From an uncultured Bacteroidales bacterium (GTDB taxonomy: Bacteria; Bacteroidota; Bacteroidia; Bacteroidales; VadinHA17): a stretch of 64,000 bases of DNA. Under the pieces are notes generated by a model, which saw only the letters and a program-made list of their open reading frames with translations, was not told where the DNA came from and searched no databases. Position 1 is the first letter of the stretch, and every line of letters starts with the position of its first letter. A program made the translations under genes and the position numbers. The DNA lies in the NCBI GenBank assembly GCA_963825165.1, contig CAWGRY010000006.1:465086-529085 (forward strand). Direction: 5' to 3'. This document shows, piece after piece, positions 16,147-26,305 of the stretch.

Positions 16147-18324
16147 ATGTTTGCTGACAGCGCTATACATGATTATCTGAAACGATACTTCGGTTTTGAT
16201 ACCTTCAAGGGAAATCAGGAGGATATAATCAGGAGTATCCTCACGGGGAATGATACTTTTGTTCTGATGCCTACCGGAGGGGGCAAGTCTCTCTGCTACC
16301 AGCTGCCTGCGGTGATGATGGAAGGCACTGCCATAGTGATCTCTCCGCTGATCGCCCTGATGAAGAACCAGGTTGATGCGATGCGGAATTTCAACACCAA
16401 TGACGACGTTGCTCATTTCCTTAATTCTTCCCTTACGAAGACTGCCATTACGAAGGTCAAGGAGGATGTGATGCTGGGAAATGCCAAGCTCCTGTACGTG
16501 GCGCCGGAGTCTCTGACCAAGGAGGAGAATATTGATTTTCTCAGGAACATTAAGATATCATTCTATGCCGTCGATGAAGCTCACTGCATATCTGAGTGGG
16601 GTCATGACTTCAGGCCTGAGTACCGCAGGATACGTCCTATCATAGATACCATAGTTCGTGCACCCATAATAGCGCTTACGGCAACTGCCACGCCAAAGGT
16701 ACAGCATGACATACTGAAGAACCTCGGAATTAGTGATGCGCAGGTTTTCAAGTCGTCTTTCAACCGGCCCAATCTCTATTATGAGGTGAAGGCAAAGCAG
16801 GATGCTGCCAGGGAGATCATCAAATACATCAAGAATAATCCGGGCAAATCCGGAATCATTTACTGTCTCAGCCGTAAAAAGGTAGAAGAGCTGGCAGAGA
16901 CGCTCAAGGTTAATGACATAAAGGCCCTGGCCTATCATGCCGGGATGGATTCGGCCACACGGACCACCAACCAGGATAAGTTCCTGATGGAGGAGGCGGA
17001 TGTGATCGTTGCCACCATTGCCTTCGGGATGGGTATAGACAAACCCGATGTGAGGTATGTCATACACTATGACATGCCCAAGAGTCTTGAGGGTTATTAC
17101 CAGGAGACAGGCCGGGCGGGCCGAGACGGCGGGGAAGGGCGATGCATAGCATACTACAGCTACGATGATATTGTCAAGCTTGAGAAATTCATGCAGGGCA
17201 AGCCCATTGCCGAACAGGAAATAGGCAAGCAGCTCCTGCTTGAAACGGTATCTTATGCCGAATCATCAACATGCCGCCGCAGGATACTGCTGCACTACTT
17301 CGGGGAGGAATACAAGCAGGAGAACTGCGAGGCGTGTGATAACTGCCTGCATCCCAAGACACAGTTTGAGGGATCAGAATATGTTGTCAACGTCCTTGAC
17401 ACTGTGCTGGCGGTAAAAGAGAAGCACAAGGCAGACCACATAGCCAAGATACTGGCCGGTACACTTAATTCAGCCATTAAGTCGTACAAGCATCACAAAC
17501 TGGAAACCTTCGGCATAGATGAAGAAAAGGATGAGCGTTTCTGGAACATGGTCATCCGGCAGGCGCTTATCAACAAGCTGCTTAACAAGGACATAGAAAA
17601 CTACGGTCTCCTGGGGCTGACGCCGAAAGGCCATCTGTTCCTCGAGAAACCGCAGAGTTTCCTGCTCAACGAGGATCATGACTATACCGAATCTGAAGAC
17701 GAGGAGGCCTCTTTCGGTGCGCGTACAGCGGCTGCCGATGAGGAGCTGCTGAGCATCCTTAAGGATCTCAGGAAAAAGATATCGAAGCAGGCAGGCCAGC
17801 CGCCTTACAATATTTTCCAGGATCCATCCCTCGAGGAGATGGCCATACAGTATCCGGTCACGCTGGAGGAGCTGCAGAATATAACGGGTATCGGTGCAGG
17901 CAAGGCACAACGGTACGGCAAGGAGGTGGTGGAGGTGATCCAGAGTTATGTTGCCGAAAAAGAGATCATCAGGCCGCAGGACATGGTGGTCAAGTCGGTG
18001 GTGAACAAATCGGGACTGAAGGTTTACATAATTCAGAGCATTGACCGCAAGATGCCATTTGAGGATATAGCCAATGCCAAAGGGATAGAGTATGAGGACC
18101 TGCTCTCCGAGATTGAGGCTATTGTCGGCTCCGGAACGAAGCTTAACATAGAGTATTATCTGGATACGGTCATTGATGACGACCGTCAGCAGGACATCTA
18201 TTCATATTTCATGGAGGAAGCTGAGACGGGGTCTCTGACGGAGGCTATCGCCGAGCTGGCGGGTGAGTTCGAGGAGGAAGAGATACGGCTGATGCGGATA
18301 AAGGTGCTGGCCGAGGGGAACTAG
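16147..18324 (+). CDS. recQ: DNA helicase RecQ (RQC, HRDC, C-terminal HTH)
   Basis: MPTGGGKSLCYQ, DEAHCISEWGHDFRP, QETGRAGRDG, CRRR..C..CDNC. Confidence 0.97.
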   Translation: MFADSAIHDYLKRYFGFDTFKGNQEDIIRSILTGNDTFVLMPTGGGKSLCYQLPAVMMEGTAIVISPLIALMKNQVDAMRNFNTNDDVAHFLNSSLTKTAITKVKEDVMLGNAKLLYVAPESLTKEENIDFLRNIKISFYAVDEAHCISEWGHDFRPEYRRIRPIIDTIVRAPIIALTATATPKVQHDILKNLGISDAQVFKSSFNRPNLYYEVKAKQDAAREIIKYIKNNPGKSGIIYCLSRKKVEELAETLKVNDIKALAYHAGMDSATRTTNQDKFLMEEADVIVATIAFGMGIDKPDVRYVIHYDMPKSLEGYYQETGRAGRDGGEGRCIAYYSYDDIVKLEKFMQGKPIAEQEIGKQLLLETVSYAESSTCRRRILLHYFGEEYKQENCEACDNCLHPKTQFEGSEYVVNVLDTVLAVKEKHKADHIAKILAGTLNSAIKSYKHHKLETFGIDEEKDERFWNMVIRQALINKLLNKDIENYGLLGLTPKGHLFLEKPQSFLLNEDHDYTESEDEEASFGARTAAADEELLSILKDLRKKISKQAGQPPYNIFQDPSLEEMAIQYPVTLEELQNITGIGAGKAQRYGKEVVEVIQSYVAEKEIIRPQDMVVKSVVNKSGLKVYIIQSIDRKMPFEDIANAKGIEYEDLLSEIEAIVGSGTKLNIEYYLDTVIDDDRQQDIYSYFMEEAETGSLTEAIAELAGEFEEEEIRLMRIKVLAEGN

Positions 18325-18331
18325 GGGGGGC

Positions 18332-18366
18332 AATTATAAATTAAGAATTAAGAGTTAAGAATTGAA
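18332..18366 (+). repeat. 5 x AATTAAG-type heptamer repeat after recQ stop
   Basis: AATTATA AATTAAG AATTAAG AGTTAAG AATTGAA. Confidence 0.7.
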
Positions 18367-18411
18367 CTGTTAGCTGATTTTCAGTAGCGCTGCAGATTAA
18401 TTTATTTTTGT

Positions 18412-18731
18412 ACCCCGTAGGGGTTAAAGTATTGTAGAACAAAGGATCAGGTCACAATTTACCCCGTAGGGGTTAAAGTATTGTAGAACAAAGGATCAGG
18501 TCACAACTTACCCCGTAGGGGTTAAAGTATTGTAGAACAAAGGATCAGGTCACAATTTACCCCGTAGGGGTTAAAGTATTGTAGAACAAAGGATCAGGTC
18601 ACAATTTACCCCGTAGGGGTTAAAGTATTGTAGAACAAAGGATCAGGTCACAACTTACCCCGTAGGGGTTAAAGTATTGTAGGGCAAAGGATCAAGTCAC
18701 AACTTACCCCGTAGGGGTTAAAGTATTGTAG
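18412..18731 (+). repeat. REP-like array 1: 7 cores ACCCCGTAGGGGT-TAAAGTATT-GTAG, 49-bp period
   Basis: Cores start at 18412, 18461, 18510, 18559, 18608, 18657, 18706; near-identical 23-nt linkers AACAAAGGATCAGGTCACAAYTT. Confidence 0.95.
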
Positions 18732-18765
18732 AACGGTGATGCCCCCACCGGTCGTTTGCCGGTTG

Positions 18766-19878
18766 TCAGTCGCGTTTCCGGAAGTGACGGGAACAGGGGA
18801 AGATAGAAAGCACGGCGACGGTGATGAAGTAGAAGGGGTAAATCAGTTCGGATAACAGAAAGAGGAGAAGGGGCGGGTGCTCCTTTCTTTTTTTAAAGTT
18901 ATAGTATGTTATGAGGAAGTCAGGTATGAGGCGGATGGCATAGAGCAGGCCAGTGAGGAGCAAGTATTTTACTGAGATGACCGAGGCTGCTGCGGCGGCG
19001 GCGACGGCGGCGTTGCACGCCGCCGTGGCGGCGGCGAGAGTGATGGTAGCTGTGTCTCTGTAGTAATATGCCTTTGATGCCCAGCGAGCGCGCTGGCGTA
19101 ACAGCGCCGCCGCCGTGACCGCCCCGGCGGTCACCGCCGCCGCCGCACTGCCACCAATGTGCCTGATGGTGCCACCTGAACCCTTCACGGCGTGCAGGAG
19201 AAAAATATCATCACCGGATGCTATATCACTGCGAAGAACACCCGCATGCTTAAGATAAATATCCTTCCTGACCGCCATGTTGGCAGCATTGCACATCACA
19301 GGATGACCGGCAACAACCGCGGCCTCGGATATCGCCTGCAACGCCGAGAACTCAAAGCTGCCGAAATGTGATACAAAACCTTTACCTGCCTTCTGATAAA
19401 CTTCGCCAACGATCATATCTGCATTACAGGCAGCAAAGAATGCAGAATATGCGCTGACCCACCCCGGCCCGACGGCACAGTCAGCATCCGTCATGAGTAT
19501 CAGTTCACCGGCGGACTTTTCAATACCGTGACGCACAGCGCTTTTCTTACCCTGAAAAGGATTATAAATCAATCTTATGTTTACCCCTGGTTGCGGCCTG
19601 TGCTGAGCAATAAATTCACTTACGACAATCGGCGTTCTGTCGGTTGAATTATCGTTTACAATGATTACTTCCAGAAGGTCTTTCGAGTAATCCTGTTCTT
19701 CCAGGCTGTTAAGCAAAGTGACGATTGTCTTCTCTTCATTGCGGGCAGCGACTACCACGGAGACCCGCACTTTTCCCGGCGCGGCCGGCTGGTCTGCGTC
19801 ACGCTTCCTTTGCAGGAGAAGCCACAAGGCAAATATTCCTGCCGAATAAATTGCTACCGGTATTATCAGCCACCACAT
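18766..19878 (-). CDS. membrane GT2 glycosyltransferase (processive-type motifs)
   Basis: VVAARNEE, NDNSTD, GKKSA, TDADC, SGDD, RQRARW, N- and C-terminal TM segments. Confidence 0.9.
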   Translation of the reverse strand: MWWLIIPVAIYSAGIFALWLLLQRKRDADQPAAPGKVRVSVVVAARNEEKTIVTLLNSLEEQDYSKDLLEVIIVNDNSTDRTPIVVSEFIAQHRPQPGVNIRLIYNPFQGKKSAVRHGIEKSAGELILMTDADCAVGPGWVSAYSAFFAACNADMIVGEVYQKAGKGFVSHFGSFEFSALQAISEAAVVAGHPVMCNAANMAVRKDIYLKHAGVLRSDIASGDDIFLLHAVKGSGGTIRHIGGSAAAAVTAGAVTAAALLRQRARWASKAYYYRDTATITLAAATAACNAAVAAAAAASVISVKYLLLTGLLYAIRLIPDFLITYYNFKKRKEHPPLLLFLLSELIYPFYFITVAVLSIFPCSRHFRKRD

Positions 19879-19888
19879 ATAATATTGT

Positions 19889-20162
19889 CTACAATACCTT
19901 AACCCCTACGGGGTAAACTATAACCTGATCCTTTGTTCTACAATACCTTAACCCCTACGGGGTATGTTCATTAATCAATTACATGTTCTACAATACCTTA
20001 ACCCCTACGGGGTATGTTCATTAATCAATTACATGTTCTACAATACCTTAACCCCTACGGGGTATGTTCATTAATCAATTACATGTTCTACAATACCTTA
20101 ACCCCTACGGGGTATGTTTTTGACCAATTGCTTTGGCTACAATACTTTATGCGCTACGCGCA
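19889..20162 (-). repeat. REP-like array 2: 5 ACCCC-type cores plus 1 TGCGC-type core, inverted relative to array 1
   Basis: Plus-strand CTAC starts at 19889, 19938, 19988, 20038, 20088, 20137; last stem TGCGC-TAC-GCGCA. Confidence 0.95.
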
Positions 20163-20240
20163 ATAATTTTTCGTATCCCTTTAATGTTCTCTTGTTCAAA
20201 TGTTCAATTGTTCATTTTGCCCCCTGCCCCCTGCAACGTG

Positions 20241-20687
20241 CTACACCATCCACTCGTAAGTCTTATAATGTCTGCCATCCATCCCCATCGCCTCGTATGT
20301 GCTCTGAGCACGGATGTTCTCCGCTTCAACGTAAAGACGCAGTCCTGCAATGCCCTCTGCAACACCTGCCTGTTTTACATAGTCATACATCATAGTGAAG
20401 ATTCCCTTTCTGCGGTAACCGGGAACAACATAGACCGACTGGAACCACCATACATTGGCATTGCGCCAGTCGCTCCACTCGTATGTTGTCAGTAATGACG
20501 CCACCACTGAGTTACTATCCTCTGCCACGTAGTACTGCCCTTTCTTCGGGTCATGAAAGACAGCCATGACACCTTTGGTGACCGTCTCTGTTTTCAGCTC
20601 CATCCTTTCCGTCTCCATGGCCATAGCCTGCTGGAACCTTATTATTGCCCCGGCGTCGTCTGGGGTTGCCTTTCTGATTGTGATCAT
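20241..20687 (-). CDS. GNAT-family N-acetyltransferase
   Basis: IRKATPDDA, TYEWSDWRN, QSVYVVPGYRRKGI, LYVEAEN..AQ..Y. Confidence 0.93.
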   Translation of the reverse strand: MITIRKATPDDAGAIIRFQQAMAMETERMELKTETVTKGVMAVFHDPKKGQYYVAEDSNSVVASLLTTYEWSDWRNANVWWFQSVYVVPGYRRKGIFTMMYDYVKQAGVAEGIAGLRLYVEAENIRAQSTYEAMGMDGRHYKTYEWMV

Positions 20688-20688
20688 C

Positions 20689-20865
20689 CTACAATACTTT
20701 AACCCCTACGGGGTATATTTATTAATCAATATCATTTTCTACAATACCTGAACCCCTACGGGGTATGTTTATTAATCCATTACATTTTCTACAATACTTT
20801 AACCCCTACGGGGTATATTAAATGGTTTAATCTCATGGGCTACAATACTTGATGCGCTACGCGCA
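20689..20865 (-). repeat. REP-like array 3: 3 ACCCC-type cores plus 1 TGCGC-type core
   Basis: CTAC starts at 20689, 20739, 20789, 20840; 50-51-bp period; linkers related but not identical. Confidence 0.93.
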
Positions 20866-21014
20866 ATAATCTATCCTGCCCCTAACTCCCAACTCCCAGC
20901 TCCAGGTCCACAGCTCCCTTCTACAGACCCTTCCGCTTTGCGGGATTTGGTTTCGCCGAGCTTCGCATCGCTCCGGTGCGTCACTTAGTTCCTCAACTTA
21001 CGGTCCTAAAAAAT

Positions 21015-21049
21015 CTTAAATTTTAATTTTTAATTCTTAATTTTTAATT
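21015..21049 (-). repeat. 5 x AATTAAR heptamer repeat after carB stop
   Basis: Minus strand reads AATTAAA AATTAAG AATTAAA AATTAAA ATTTAAG. Confidence 0.7.
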
Positions 21050-21054
21050 CCTTA

Positions 21055-24000
21055 CTAGTACTCATCCCACGCCTTTATCTCCATCTCACTCTCCGGCACG
21101 GTGCAGAAAGCATGAATGAAGGCAGAAGCCAGTCGTGCATTGGTGATAAGAGGTATGTTATAGTCAACGGCAGTGCGTCGTATCTGGTAGTCGTTGTTCA
21201 GCTCGGTGGCCGAGAGATCCTTGGGAATATTTATAACCAGGTCTACCACCCTTTTCTTTATCAGCTCCACGGTGTTGGGGCTCTCTTTTTCATCAGGCCA
21301 GAACGCCACTTCAGCCTCTATCGAGGCGTTGTTCAAGAAACTGCTGCGTACCCCTGGTGGCATAGAGCTTATAACCACGGCTGCGCAGCAGGCGGGCGGC
21401 CTCAATCAGGTCGGCCTTCGATTTGGCCGGACCCGATGATATCAGTACTGCCTTCTCAGGCATGCGGTAACCAACTGAATACATAGCTTTTAGCAGAGCC
21501 TCGTAGAAACTATCACCTATGCATCCCACCTCGCCCGTCGAAGCCATATCAACACCCAGCACAGGATCGGCCTTGGCGAGACGCGAGAAGCTGAACTGGG
21601 AGGCCTTGACCCCTACGTAATCGAGATCAAAGACCGACTTGTGAGGCTTTTCCCAGTGTACTCCAAGCATTACTTTGGTGGCAAGCTCGATAAGGTTTGT
21701 CTTCAATACCTTCGACACAAACGGCATACTACGGCTGGCACGCAGGTTGCACTCGATGACCTTGATGTCATTCTCCCGGGCAAGAAACTGTATGTTGAAG
21801 GGACCAGAGATATTAAGCTCCCTGGCAATTTCCCGGGAAATACGTTTGATGCGCCTCACGGTTTCAAAATATATCTTCTGCGGCGGGAATACTATCGTTG
21901 CATCTCCTGAATGGACACCTGCATATTCAACGTGTTCGCTGATGGCGTAGGCAACAATATCCCCGGCTGCAGCTACAGCGTCAATCTCTATCTCCTTGGC
22001 ATACTCTATGAACTCTGATACCACAACAGGGTGTTCCTTGGAGACACTCGAAGCCAGCTCAAGGAAATGCACCAGCTCGCTTCTGTTTGACACCACGTTC
22101 ATTGCCGCACCGGAAAGAACATATGAAGGGCGTATCAGAACAGGGAAACCTATACCGTCGATGAATTTATCTATCTCCCCGAGACTCGTCAGCTCCTGCC
22201 ACCTGGGCTGGTCAACACCAAGGGTGTCGCACATCGACGAAAATTTATGCCGGTCTTCAGCCCTGTCAATAGATTCGGGTGGTGTCCCCAGTATCGGAAC
22301 ACCCTGTCTGTGAAGCCTCATTGCCAGGTTATTGGGTATCTGTCCGCCCATCGCAAGAATCACTCCCCTGGGCGTCTCAAGATCGATGATATCCATCACC
22401 CGTTCAAACGAGAGCTCATCGAAATAGAGACGGTCACACATGTCATAATCAGTGCTGACAGTTTCGGGATTATAGTTGATCATCACCCCTCGCAGTCCCT
22501 CGTGACGAATCGTATTGATAGCGTTGACAGAGCACCAGTCGAACTCGACGCTCGAGCCTATCCGGTATGCTCCCGAGCCCAGAACTATCACTGACCGCTT
22601 GTCGTTCTCATACCAGATGTCATGCTCCATCCCGCTGTAGGTGAGGTAGAGATAGTTGGTCACGGCAGGATACTCGGCAGCAAGCGTATCAATCTGCTTG
22701 ACGTACGGTACGATGCCGTTACTCTTACGGTGCCGGCGGACGCTGAGCATTGCATCATTGATTGTCTTGTTATCTGCCTTCAGCACATGGCGGGCTATCT
22801 GGAAGTCGCTGAAGCCGTAGATCTTGGCATGAAGCAGTTCCTGAACCGGGAGGCTCTCGATAGTGTTATATTTCTCAAGACTTTTTTTTATGTTTTCAAT
22901 GTTCTGCAGCTTGTACAGGAACCACCTGTCTATCTTCGTGAGCTCGCAGATGCGGTCAACGTCAAATCCTTTCTCCAGCGCCTCGGCTATTGAAAAGATT
23001 CGCATGTCTGTCGGCTGGGAGAGTTCTTTTTCGATATCCTTGAAGCTGAGATTACGGTTGCTGACGAAACCGTGCATTCCCTGGCCTATCATGCGCAATC
23101 CTTTCTGTATCGCTTCCTCGAAAGTGCGTCCTATGGCCATGATCTCTCCCACACTCTTCATGCTGCTGCCTATTTCGTGTGCCACACCCTGGAACTTGTT
23201 AAGGTCCCAGCGCGGTATCTTGCACACGATATAGTCGAGGGCAGGTTCGAAACAGGCTGTGGTGGTCTTTGTGACCGAGTTCTTAAGCTGGTGGAGGCCG
23301 TATCCCAGCGCCAGCTTGGCTGCGACAAACGCAAGGGGATATCCGGTGGCTTTGGAAGCCAGCGCGCTCGAGCGCGAGAGACGCGCATTGACCTCAATGA
23401 CCCTGTAGTCCTCTGAGTTGGGATCGAGGGCATACTGTACATTACATTCACCGATGATGCCGACGTGACGTATGATCTTTATCGACAGTTCCCTGAGCTT
23501 GTGATATTCGCTGTTGGTCAGTGTCTGTGAAGGAGCGACGACGATGCTCTCGCCGGTGTGAATACCCAGCGGGTCGAAGTTCTCCATGTTGCAGACGGTG
23601 ATGCAGTTGTCGAAGCGGTCGCGCACCACCTCATATTCAACCTCTTTCCAGCCTTTTAGCGATTCTTCTACCAGTATCTGGTCCGAGAAGGTGAATGCCC
23701 TGCCGGCAAGAGCCTTCAGTTCCTCGTTGTCTGAACAGAACCCGCTGCCCAGTCCGCCCAGGGCATAAGCTGCCCGTATGATAATAGGGAACCCCAGCTT
23801 CCCGGAGGCCTTTAATGCGTCTTCAACATTGGTGACAGCAATGCTGCGCGGAGTTTTTACGTTTATCTCATCGAGCTTTTTTACGAAGAGCTCACGGTCC
23901 TCCGTTTCCATGATTGCGCTTACGGGAGTACCCAGCACCTTAACGCCGTATTTCTCAAATACACCCTCTCGGAAGAGTGTCGTGCCGCAGTTCAGCGCTG

Positions 24001-24280
24001 TCTGTCCGCCGAAGGCCAGGAGGACGCCGTCAGGCTTCTCACGGGCTATCACGCGTTCAACAAATTTCGGTGTGACGGGGAGGAAGTATATTTTGTCAGC
24101 TATTTTTTCAGAGGTCTGTACGGTGGCGATATTGGGATTGATGAGAACGGTAAAGATACCCTCCTCACGGAGCGCTTTCAGGGCCTGTGATCCCGAATAG
24201 TCAAACTCGCCGGCCTCGCCTATTTTCAGAGCTCCCGAGCCCAGCAGCAGTACCTTCTTTATCTCTTCCTGCATTGTCAT
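21055..24280 (-). CDS. carB: carbamoyl-phosphate synthase large subunit, split by a 1-nt frameshift near 21338-21340 in the MGS domain
   Basis: [17 protein letters not shown] and two ATP-grasp halves; frame 1 stops after [10 protein letters not shown]; the next frame continues [13 protein letters not shown]...[25 protein letters not shown]. Confidence 0.93.
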
Positions 24281-24326
24281 TGTCTTGCCGGTAAAAATAC
24301 AATAAATTATCTGGAGGGTTATTTCA

Positions 24327-24405
24327 TGGCAAGTCTTAATCCTCTACGAGGAATAAATGTTAATTAACCTCCTTTTCTGCTACAATACCTGATGCGCTAC
24401 GCGCC
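24327..24405 (-). repeat. REP-like array 4 (degenerate): TCCTC-TAC-GAGGA core plus TGCGC-type core upstream of carB
   Basis: Hairpin at 24340-24352; CTACAATACCTGATGCGCTACGCGCC at 24380-24405. Confidence 0.75.
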
Positions 24406-24540
24406 ATTCAAAAATCTTTCATTTGTAATAAACAAATACATCGTAGATGTTAAGGTATTATAGGACAGATGAAACGACCACATAAAAATTCCTCGAAAAT
24501 TATTAGGAAATCATTTCGAAAAAAATTGTATTTATAAATA

Positions 24541-24579
24541 AATGTATAAATTTGCATCTTAAATGAATAAATATACAGC
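24541..24579 (+). promoter_or_regulatory. tandem ARG boxes overlapping the argR promoter -7 element
   Basis: AATGTATAAATTTGCATC-TTA-AATGAATAAATATACAGC (two 18-mers, 3-nt gap); TAAATTTG at 24547-54. Confidence 0.8.
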
Positions 24580-25047
24580 ATGAAAAGAGCATCAAGACTT
24601 ATTCTGATTGAGAAGATAGTTTCGGAAAAGAACATCGTCTCACAGGATGAGCTGCTCAGACTGATGGAGGGCGCAGGGATGAAGTGTACTCAGGCGACAC
24701 TCTCCCGCGACTTAAGGCAGCTGGGTATAAGCAGGGGCTTCGATGGCAAAGGCGGTTATCGCTACATTCTCCCGGACAAAAAGACACAGACAGCTGAGAC
24801 ACTACCCGGACATGAAAGCGAAGCTGTAACAGGCATAACATGGGCCAGGGGTATGATGCTGATACATACCCATCCCGGATTTGCCTCCGCTGTAGCATTG
24901 AAAATAGACCGTGCCGGAAGATATGAAATAGCCGGTACCGTTGCCGGCGATGACACGATCCTGCTAATCCCCAGAGATAACATAAGCAATGAGGCGGTTG
25001 AAGAATGTCTCAGCCTGATATTTAATAATAAAATTAAAACGAAATAA
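24580..25047 (+). CDS. argR: arginine repressor
   Basis: [24 protein letters not shown]. Confidence 0.95.
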
Positions 25048-25051
25048 CAAC

Positions 25052-26305
25052 ATGAAAAAAGTAATGCTGGCATATTCCGGAGGGCTTGACACCTCCGTGA
25101 TACTTAAATGGCTCATAAAAAAAGGATACGATGTAATTGCATTTGTGGCTGACGTAGGCCAGAAGGACGATTTTGAAGCAGTACGCGAAAAGGCTCTGGC
25201 AATAGGCGCATCAAAAGTGATCATTGAAGATCTGAAGAAAGAGTTTGTAACCGATTATATTTTCAAGGCTGTCAAGGCCAACGCAGTATATGAAGACCGT
25301 TACCTTCTCGGCACGGCACTGGCACGTCCGCTCATAGCAAAAAAACAGATCGAAGCCGCCATAGAATACGGCGCTGATTATGTCGCTCACGGCGCTACCG
25401 GAAAAGGTAACGACCAGGTGCGGTTTGAGCTGACATATTATGCTCTCAAGCCCGACATAAAGGTCATATCTCCATGGAAGGACCCTGAATTCCTCTCCCA
25501 GTTCCAGGGCCGTTCTGACATGATCAGGTACGCTGCCGGGCATCGCATACCGGTTAAAGCCTCCATCTCAAAACCATACAGCGAGGATGACAACCTGATG
25601 CATATAAGCCATGAGGCAGGTATCCTGGAGGATCCTCTCTACTGCGCCGGGAAGGATATCCTCTCGAAAATGGTCATGCCGATGGACGCACCTGATAAAG
25701 AAACGCATATCTCAATCACTTTCAAGGATGGCATACCCGTAAAGGTTACAAACAAGGATGACGGAACAAGGTATGAAGACCCTCTTGAGCTGTTCACCTA
25801 TCTTAATAAGCTGGGCGGTGAGAATGGCATCGGTCTCCTTGACATGGTTGAGAACAGGTTCGTGGGAATAAAGTCAAGAGGCATTTACGAAACTCCCGGA
25901 GCCACAATACTGTACGCAGCTCATAAAGATATTGAAGGTATTGCGATGGACCGCGAAGTGATGCGCTTGCGTAACATGCTGGCACCGGTCTTTGCCGAGC
26001 TGGTATACAATGGATTCTGGTTCTCTCCCGAAATGGACTTTCTGCAGGCGGCAATGGATAAGAGCCAGGAGGTCATCGACGGTGTTGTCAATATGGTGCT
26101 CTACAAGGGTAATATTATTATGGAAGGTCGTGAATCACCCTCCTCATTATATAATAAGGAGTTATCGAGCATGGATATTGAGGGAGGATTTAACCAGACT
26201 GACAGTCTCGGTTTCATACGGATTAATGCAATACGCCTGATGGCGCATCATGCCATTATGGAAGCCAACAGAAAAAAAGTAAGTGAAAATGAACCTGTGG
26301 GATAA
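25052..26305 (+). CDS. argG: argininosuccinate synthase
   Basis: [41 protein letters not shown]. Confidence 0.97.

Follow-up and report, generated by a model that had tools for sequence, protein, structure and literature searches.

The DNA considered here, referred to as the window, is a stretch of 64,000 nucleotides from an uncultured Bacteroidales bacterium (GenBank assembly GCA_963825165.1, contig CAWGRY010000006.1, positions 465,086 to 529,085), and between its positions 18412 and 24463 it carries a family of 26-base repeats, each made of a 5-bp stem, a GTA loop, a 9-nt linker and a terminal GTAG tetranucleotide, hereafter called the tag. These units are probably repetitive extragenic palindrome (REP)-like DNA hairpins, and their partner would be the single IS200-like Y1/HUH transposase of the genome, encoded outside the window.

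Regarding their number, the strict motif N5-GTA-N5'-N9-GTAG, where N5' is the perfect complement of N5, has 17 copies in the window, and the covariance model (R1) gives 19 matches within the span, in line with the about 19 copies of a 26-bp unit reported in an earlier note on this DNA; the two matches beyond the strict set are at 24380-24405 (minus strand) and 24438-24463 (plus strand). The linker consensus of the window units is T-N3-G/T-T-A/T-T-T, and the copies are laid out as three head-to-tail arrays plus others upstream of carB, the gene for the large subunit of carbamoyl-phosphate synthase.

Array 1 (18412 to 18731, plus strand) is composed of 7 head-to-tail strict units with the stem ACCCC/GGGGT, the loop GTA, the linker TAAAGTATT and the tag GTAG, each followed by an array-specific spacer of 23 nt, for a period of 49; Tandem Repeats Finder places it at 18411-18734 with period 49, 6.6 copies and 97% matches. 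It lies between two convergent genes, one encoding a RecQ-type helicase (16147 to 18324, plus strand) and the other a family-2 glycosyltransferase (18766 to 19878, minus strand). Array 2 (19889 to 20162, minus strand) has 6 strict units, one with a TGCGC stem and then five with ACCCC (Tandem Repeats Finder: 19888-20118, period 50, 4.6 copies), and 10 nt separate its end from the ATG of the glycosyltransferase gene, so that this gene is bracketed by arrays 1 and 2, mutually inverted. Array 3 (20689 to 20865, minus strand) has 4 strict units, one TGCGC and then three ACCCC (Tandem Repeats Finder: 20689-20819, period 50, 2.6 copies), and abuts the start of a GNAT acetyltransferase gene (20241 to 20687, minus strand) located between arrays 2 and 3. 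The spacers are of 23-24 nt and are repeated in each array, with one type common to arrays 1 and 2 and another to arrays 2 and 3: the last spacer of array 2 is of the array-1 type, and the preceding three are of the array-3 type.

The remaining copies lie between carB and the arginine repressor gene, argR, whose divergent control region (24281-24579) is occupied by three units or remnants (24340, 24380 and 24438); arginine-repressor operators would be expected in this same region. The unit at 24380 to 24405 (minus strand) has the full linker and GTAG, and its stem is GGCGC/GCGCA, with the outer pair mismatched and 4/5 pairs formed, so that the TGCGC/GCGCA stem assigned to it in the earlier note holds for the copies in arrays 2 and 3 and not for this one. 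The copy reported at 24327 is indeed degenerate: it is the tagless hairpin TCCTC-GTA-GAGGA at 24340 to 24352 (minus strand), 27 nt downstream of the GTAG of the preceding unit. To these must be added a unit missed in the earlier list, at 24438 to 24463 (plus strand), with ACATC-GTA-GATGT, the linker TAAGGTATT and ATAG as its tag (covariance-model E 2.2e-4).

Genome-Wide Distribution

The genome (3.68 Mb, 12 contigs, 96.7% complete) was scanned as a whole, as the earlier note had proposed, and the strict motif occurs in it 53 times, with 10 different stems, all perfectly complementary; the reversed-genome control gave 0 copies, and base-counting arithmetic a chance expectation of ~0.4 copies per genome. 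The most frequent stems are ACCCC (16 copies), TGCCC (13), ACCGC (8), TGCTC (5), TCCGC (3) and TGCGC (3), followed by ACCTC (2) and by ATCCC, TGACC and TCGCC with 1 copy each. The covariance model returned 72 matches at E <= 0.1, 66 of them at E <= 2.2e-4; it was used in place of a relaxed regular expression, which, with one stem mismatch and a linker of 8-10 nt allowed, performed no better than the reversed-genome control. One unit cluster reaches the end of contig C2, and the assembly may miss copies there.

As for their location, 51 of the 53 strict copies are intergenic by a crude call of open reading frames (ORFs), and more than a dozen sites, distributed over five contigs, carry units, which occur in both orientations. 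The majority of the copies are arranged as direct repeats in which a spacer of 23-29 nt has been co-amplified, with unit periods of 49-55 nt; the head-to-tail order described in the earlier note holds within the window, and inverted pairs exist elsewhere, for example at C6 68181/68212 and C3 900602/900633.

These dimensions, a repeat of 26 bp with "spacers" of 23-29 bp, are those of a CRISPR-like array, and arrays of hairpin units accompanying UG27-type reverse transcriptases are described, in the accessible part of a recent preprint, from phages predicted to infect Bacteroidota (bioRxiv 10.64898/2026.09.22.753630). Noncoding RNA arrays of either kind are of negligible probability here, given that the units are scattered in both orientations over many sites. 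A CRISPR array was rejected on the grounds that the spacers are repeated within and between arrays and that Cas1 (PF01867) is not found in the 96.7%-complete genome; a UG27 array was rejected on the unit length of 49-55 nt and on the lack of any reverse transcriptase (PF00078) match in the same genome, the UG27 units of that preprint being of ~135-167 nt, with a pseudoknot, and next to the reverse transcriptase and two accessory genes.

Stem Covariation and Hairpin Structure

The strict scan demands complementarity; therefore, the units used to evaluate pairing were picked by loop, linker and tag only. Selected in this stem-blind manner, the genome has 63 sites, 51 of which have 5/5 Watson-Crick pairs, 4 have 4/5 and 8 have 3 or fewer, while in the reversed genome 13 sites fit, and their pairing does not exceed 3/5. 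With the anchor TATTGTAG alone, 40 of the 41 sites with 5/5 stems carry the GTA loop.

A larger alignment (A1) was built with the stem-blind anchor on the loci of this genome and on related loci, for a total of 138 sites, 99 of them distinct, in which the anchor itself dictates the loop and tag columns. Pairing occurs in 98.2% of the cells; the shuffles, of which 0 of 500 attain this value, give 62.6%, and the slid-partner controls 32-46%. The sequences are related, and for this reason the shuffle control overstates the significance, while the slid controls are unaffected. Changes on both sides of the stem are found in 4 of the 5 pairs (148 cells), 14 stem sequences exist across the alignment, and the closing pair is C-G in 93 of the 99 units and G-C in none. 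Judged from these alignments, and as the earlier note had proposed, the stem appears to be selected as a structure rather than as a sequence, compensatory change keeping the hairpin; a single enzyme would need to handle at least 10 stems, which fits a recognition based on shape together with the sequence of loop and linker.

The same data bear on a different explanation, namely that the units are double-stranded palindromic sites for a dimeric regulator or a nucleoid protein, passively duplicated in tandem. Their cores are palindromic and intergenic, and some are in promoter regions, such as that between carB and argR; however, a protein that reads the duplex reads bases, and here bases change while complementarity stays (10 stems in this genome, 14 across A1), the conserved parts are instead the asymmetric loop, the linker and the tag, and the link with the gene of a single-strand enzyme recurs in 41 of 46 homologous loci (see below). 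Duplex sites are on these grounds very improbable.

Regarding the nature of the folded strand, the sequence preceding the stem is NNT, and only the T at -1 is conserved above 90%. The invariant C-G closing and the GTA loop match the d(C-GNA-G) mini-hairpin motif: d(GNA) loops closed by C-G are described in the accessible text of two papers as very stable DNA mini-hairpins (PMC3201870, PMC13037366). The complementary strand carries a TAC loop, and therefore the strand with GTAG is probably the active one.

The Y1/HUH Enzyme and Its Locus

The genome has a single match to PF01797 (Y1_Tnp), on contig C2 (612056-612400), and none falls in the window, in keeping with the earlier note, which found no Y1 gene there, inferred an enzyme encoded elsewhere and proposed to look for an HUH gene flanked by the same units. 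The gene is an intact ORF of 158 amino acids (C2:612041-612514; locus L001, 1486-1962), and its product scores 78.3-78.5 bits against PF01797, with a cut-off of 23, and passes the NCBIfam IS200/IS605 model NF033573 marginally, with 57.4 bits for a cut-off of 55. Its best relatives with a solved structure are the TnpA proteins of IS608 (E 1e-3) and ISDra2; the HUH motif (D-H56-I-H58) and the catalytic tyrosine, Y116, align with IS608 TnpA, with Y116 corresponding to the tyrosine of the IS608 "KQY". In 16 aligned homologues, H56, H58, W96, Q97, Y116, Q120, H123 and H124 are invariant, and the motifs of the protein, DHIH, W96-Q97 and Y116-ILN-Q120-ES-H123-H124, correspond to the signatures DH[IV]H, WQ and Y---Q--HH.

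The gene sits in the densest cluster of units, with 15 of the 53 strict copies. Upstream there are 7 strict units, six on the plus strand with ACCGC stems and one on the minus strand with TGCCC; downstream there are 8, all TGCCC and on the minus strand, the last one overlapping the stop codon. The units flanking the gene are thus inverted, with the tags pointing at it from both sides. A tagless hairpin, TCCCC-GTA-GGGGA, occurs 27 nt past the last upstream GTAG, ~60 bp before the start codon.

Two further features of this locus deserve mention. The motif GCTGCATTTCTAAAAT stands ~25 bp before the start codon (L001 1440-1485), similar words precede many homologues, and beyond the window an exact duplicate is found at C6:403786; the motif may represent a common promoter or leader, or else a remnant locus. 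Directly beyond the downstream unit cluster, a tRNA-like sequence was recognized by eye on the minus strand (L001 2560-2660; C2 ~613115-613215).

The orientation of the units is relevant to another reading, according to which they act as RNA: transcribed hairpins would stabilize, terminate or be processed from the neighboring mRNAs, and the transposase would be coincidental or secondary. In the window, the arrays are co-oriented with the adjacent genes (array 1 follows recQ, while arrays 2 and 3 and the carB copy are upstream of minus-strand genes), and the RNA of array 1 folds better than its shuffles, with z -2.85. Elsewhere, instead, units are anti-oriented to both neighboring genes (C2 641545-641595, C3 900501-900602) or form inverted pairs; no T run follows the hairpin, the Rfam scan of window positions 17000-26000 found no family at E <= 1, the mirror-symmetric units around the Y1 gene suit a role at the DNA level, and the combination of C-G closing pair and GTA loop is, according to the literature cited above, a stable motif specific to DNA. 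An RNA role is accordingly judged quite unlikely; the evidence leans to DNA, and action of the enzyme and its hairpins on single-stranded DNA is most likely.

Homologous Loci in Related Genomes

A scan of one genome per species gave 46 homologous loci, with 33-85% identity to the Y1 protein, mostly from metagenome-assembled genomes (MAGs) named Bacteroidales or Rikenellaceae; the other records are from Flavivirga, Gelidibacter, Saprospiraceae, Chitinophagales, Ignavibacteriaceae and one Thermoguttaceae. The strict motif occurs within 3 kb of the gene in 29 of the 46, and the typical locus has one plus-strand unit ~130 bp upstream and one minus-strand unit ~70 bp downstream, whose left and right stems differ (TCGCC/AGCCC, ACCGC/TGCCC, ACTCC/TGGCC). 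When the flanks were scanned within 350 bp in a relaxed form, with any 3-nt loop and with GTAG, GTAA, GTGG or ATAG as the tag, units were found at 41 of the 46 loci, compared to 2 of 184 mirror-control windows; 28 loci have them upstream on the plus strand, 25 downstream on the minus strand and 16 on both sides, while 11 have upstream minus-strand and 9 downstream plus-strand units. The distant homologues keep the same plan, a 5-bp stem, ~9 nt and a tag, in which triplets such as AGA, GGA and ATC replace the GTA loop.

At the level of the order, 151 genomes were sampled, and the model scan scored 47 candidates per genome. A homologue at E <= 1e-10 is present in 92 of them, a set that includes ordinary IS200 copies; model matches at E <= 0.001 were found in 15, all of which have a homologue, and in none of the 59 genomes without one. 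With the flank scan, these counts bear out the association in related genomes that the earlier note had put forward. The closest sampled homologues, in G057 (64% identity), G083 (61%) and G007 (58%), come with 14, 29 and 28 model matches, respectively, and the matches flank the homologue in G057, G083, G071 and G005. As a side observation, the two Y1 copies L028 and L029, on one MAG contig, each have TCGCC units downstream (6 and 11 units) with a period of ~150 bp, a longer composite than the 49-55-bp units of this genome.

In another explanation, the system is still a selfish insertion sequence (IS) of the IS200/IS605 type with miniature nonautonomous derivatives, in other words palindrome-associated elements, and not a domesticated pair of REPs and REP-associated tyrosine transposase (RAYT). 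The bare pass of NF033573 is compatible with it, and so are the closest solved relatives, both IS transposases; moreover, some relatives have two copies per genome (L028 and L029 on one contig, L019 and L022 as well as L008 and L020 each in one MAG), and the distribution is patchy, with a genome of the same family, G125, having neither a close homologue nor units. Against a selfish IS, the gene is single-copy in this genome, where such an element would be expected in several near-identical copies, and its flanking units are inverted, with the tags inward, and not on the same strand as the ends of such an element should be; the putative cleavage sites would then be on opposite strands, and therefore no single-strand circle carrying the gene would form. 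In addition, the subclass of Y1 enzymes with the signature Y---Q--HH is described, in the accessible text of PMC6006769, without IS properties. All considered, a still-selfish IS is unlikely.

Comparison with Described Systems

The enzyme is best compared with subclass 1.2 of TnpA_Y1, as defined by Quentin et al. in 2018 (PMC6006769): according to the accessible text, its members have the signature Y---Q--HH with DH[IV]H and WQ, a low copy number, ~148 amino acids, a C-terminal domain specific to the subclass and an origin in Bacteroidetes or Cyanobacteria. The Y1 protein shares DH[IV]H, WQ and Y---Q--HH, has 158 amino acids, occurs in 1 copy and is closest to Bacteroidales and Rikenellaceae proteins, a likeness of signature, length, copy number and origin. 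The difference concerns the repeats: the same text tabulates the subclass as REP "no" and describes it as lacking IS properties, while hairpin-linker-tag units flank the gene here and at the 41 homologous loci. The REP search described there was limited to stems of 7-20 nt with GTAG or GTGG on their 5' side, 0-2 nt away, and therefore would miss 5-bp stems with the tag 9 nt on the 3' side.

REPtrons, known from E. coli, Stenotrophomonas and Marinomonas (PMC8266576, PMC3333891), resemble the present system in that their extragenic palindromes are short and carry an unpaired GTAG, compensatory change preserves many stems, clusters and tandem reiteration occur, and a single-copy Y1/HUH gene has inverted repeats on its flanks; the Marinomonas REPtron also has a perfect stem of 5 bp (PMC8266576). 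Their enzymes, TnpA_REP, cut single-stranded REPs at CT or CA with the use of the 5' GTAG, as reported in the accessible part of PMC8266576. In contrast, GTAG lies there 0-2 nt 5' of the stem and has a guide role, while in each of the 53 strict copies it follows the stem on the 3' side, at a distance of 9 nt; their enzyme is of class 2, with Y---NP, and the one found here of class 1, with Y---Q--HH; their copies are in the hundreds, against ~70, and the phylum here is Bacteroidota. To summarize with respect to classical REPs, the units are extragenic, palindromic and repeated, and the Y1 gene is flanked by them, while a 5' adjoining GTAG, a class-2 enzyme and a high copy number were not found.

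Among IS200/IS605 elements, the transposases bind subterminal hairpins on single-stranded DNA, a guide located 5' of the hairpin foot selects the cleavage tetranucleotide through base pairing, and the right-end linker is short, 8 nt family-wide, as far as the accessible text of PMC3597680 describes them. The right ends of IS608 and ISDra2, whose transposases are the solved relatives named above, are the closest likeness to the present unit: a subterminal hairpin, a short linker (8 nt there, 9 here) and a tetranucleotide. They differ in that the two ends of an IS share a strand, the left linker is long and every hairpin has a guide on its 5' side, while here the units are mirror images, no conserved guide is seen and the gene is single-copy.

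As for repeats without reference to the enzyme, Di Nocera et al. in 2013 (PMC3733652) list, in the part of the paper that is accessible, GTAG REPs from Proteobacteria, Cyanobacteria, Chloroflexi and the PVC group, and only CGTC repeats from Bacteroidetes. Their families have a terminal unpaired GTAG, and one from Thauera has a 5-bp stem; they differ from the present family in that the tag adjoins the stem, with no counterpart of the conserved 9-nt linker. The same source already describes head-tail dimers and clusters tandemly reiterated with their flanking DNA, and therefore the tandem order as such is not new. REPINs and RAYTs of Pseudomonas and Enterobacteria share with this system nonautonomous repeats and a single-copy, vertically kept Y1 gene, on the available descriptions; their replicating unit is an inverted doublet, while in the present family direct repeats predominate, amplified along with a spacer of 23-29 nt. 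No matching REP class was found in the literature covered, which did not include subscription journals and supplementary tables, and the system looks like a REP/RAYT-type variant, unreported in Bacteroidales, and not like a member of a described class.

Proposed Mechanism and Array Growth

From what is directly observed, namely the repeat family, the covariation of its stems, its extragenic location and the single Y1 gene with inverted units here and in relatives, we infer how the enzyme may bind the units, where it may cleave, on which strand and how the arrays may grow, the cleavage site and the growth of the arrays being much less certain than the partnership of hairpins and transposase itself. 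In single-stranded DNA, the strand with the GTA loop would fold into a 5-bp hairpin closed by C-G and capped by a GNA-type triloop; the enzyme would read the stem by its shape, and the loop and the 3' linker (T...GTATT) by their sequence, and would cut and rejoin either at the GTAG that follows the stem after 9 nt or beside it. This geometry, hairpin, short linker and cleavage tetranucleotide, would be that of an IS200/IS605 right end, and by analogy the unit may be a right-end-type substrate with GTAG as its cleavage tetranucleotide. Copies would thereby spread to new intergenic sites, and arrays would grow by reinsertion of a spacer-hairpin-linker-GTAG segment 3' of an existing GTAG or by unequal recombination between units.

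Two routes fit the arrays, (a) self-insertion of a mini-element and (b) unequal recombination or slippage. In route (a), a one-hairpin mini-element consisting of spacer, hairpin, linker and its own GTAG would insert 3' of a GTAG, and the distance from GTAG to the next hairpin (23-29 nt) would be its long "left linker". The first hairpin of array 1 is preceded by a GTAG at 24 nt, which speaks for this route, while most other array starts, inspected by eye, have no upstream GTAG 23-29 nt away, which speaks against it. At C2 617363-617555, similar spacers stand before TGCTC cores whatever the upstream core, a single case that fits a unit made of spacer plus core. That the arrays change is hinted at by two contigs from sequencing runs: that of run X1 has 100 bp (2 units) fewer in array 3, a weak hint that may be a k-mer collapse, and in that of run X4, which comes from a relative ~90% identical, 8 other letters connect position 18323 to 18766 and array 1 is absent, again a weak hint as the joint has only 29 letters on one side.

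A broader and more doubtful proposal extends route (a) to the whole Y---Q--HH clade of Bacteroidota, which might be the partner of a new REP class whose unit runs from just behind one GTAG cleavage site through a 23-29-nt left linker, the hairpin and a 9-nt right linker up to the end of the next GTAG. The target of such a mini-element and its own 3' end would be the same tetranucleotide; therefore, it would insert behind itself and build head-to-tail arrays. If true, this self-insertion would be a mode of amplification undescribed for REPs or REPINs.

Several points weigh against the partnership between the hairpins and the Y1 enzyme, or against a role of the enzyme in making the arrays. Tandem arrays can arise by slippage or unequal crossing-over without any enzyme, and the cluster on C3, where a dimer is duplicated with a period of 101, is in keeping with recombination, that is route (b). 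On the structural side, no guide tetranucleotide complementary to GTAG is conserved 5' of the stem, by eye and in the alignment, and the stability of the hairpins is modest, DNA folding giving -3.7 to -5.1 kcal/mol with z between -1.5 and -2.1. The orientation of the units with respect to GC skew is uninformative, the skew being weak and the orientations mixed. With ~70 copies, the family is smaller than classical REPs, for which more than 100 copies are usual according to the accessible text of Nunvar. In the order sample, 77 of the 92 homologue-bearing genomes have no model match among the 47 candidates scored per genome, and therefore a homologue alone does not predict the motif; besides, genomes of one order are kin, so that the co-occurrence counts overstate independence.

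Other Features of the Window

Some observations on the window are unrelated to the hairpin units. The gene for the carbamoyl-phosphate synthase large subunit (21055-24280, minus strand) is split into two overlapping ORFs, one at 21311-24280 with the carbamoyl-phosphate synthase and ATP-grasp domains and the other at 21055-21405 with the C-terminal MGS-like domain; the split is a frameshift near 21311-21405, either real or an assembly error. AT-rich heptads, (AATTAAG)n, are found right behind the stop codons of recQ (18339-18363, plus strand) and carB (21016-21049, read on the minus strand), and read in the same sense as the gene they follow; three or more RRTTAAG heptads in a run occur at 13 sites of the genome and the 13-mer AATTAAGAATTAA has 35 occurrences, constituting a second dispersed repeat. 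Finally, two C-rich tandem motifs stand beside the arrays, AACTCCC repeated 2.9 times (20884-20903) near array 3 and TGCCCCC repeated 2.4 times (20218-20234) near array 2; the AACTCCC doublet is unique in the genome.

Implications

A domesticated single-strand transposase by which a population of short repeats is maintained has its textbook example in the REP/RAYT pair, and what is known of this pair comes almost entirely from Proteobacteria and from class-2 enzymes. If the partnership proposed here is true, a class-1 (IS200-like) subclass published without a DNA partner would have one linked to its function, and GTAG-tagged palindromes would extend to Bacteroidales with a different geometry, in which a conserved 9-nt linker separates the stem from a tag on its 3' side, the stem has 5 bp and the loop is of the GNA type. 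A practical consequence is that the present family escapes REP searches restricted to a 5' GTAG and to stems of 7 bp or more. In conclusion, the system would make two questions testable, namely how HUH enzymes choose their cleavage site and how the ends of IS200 elements evolve into REPs.

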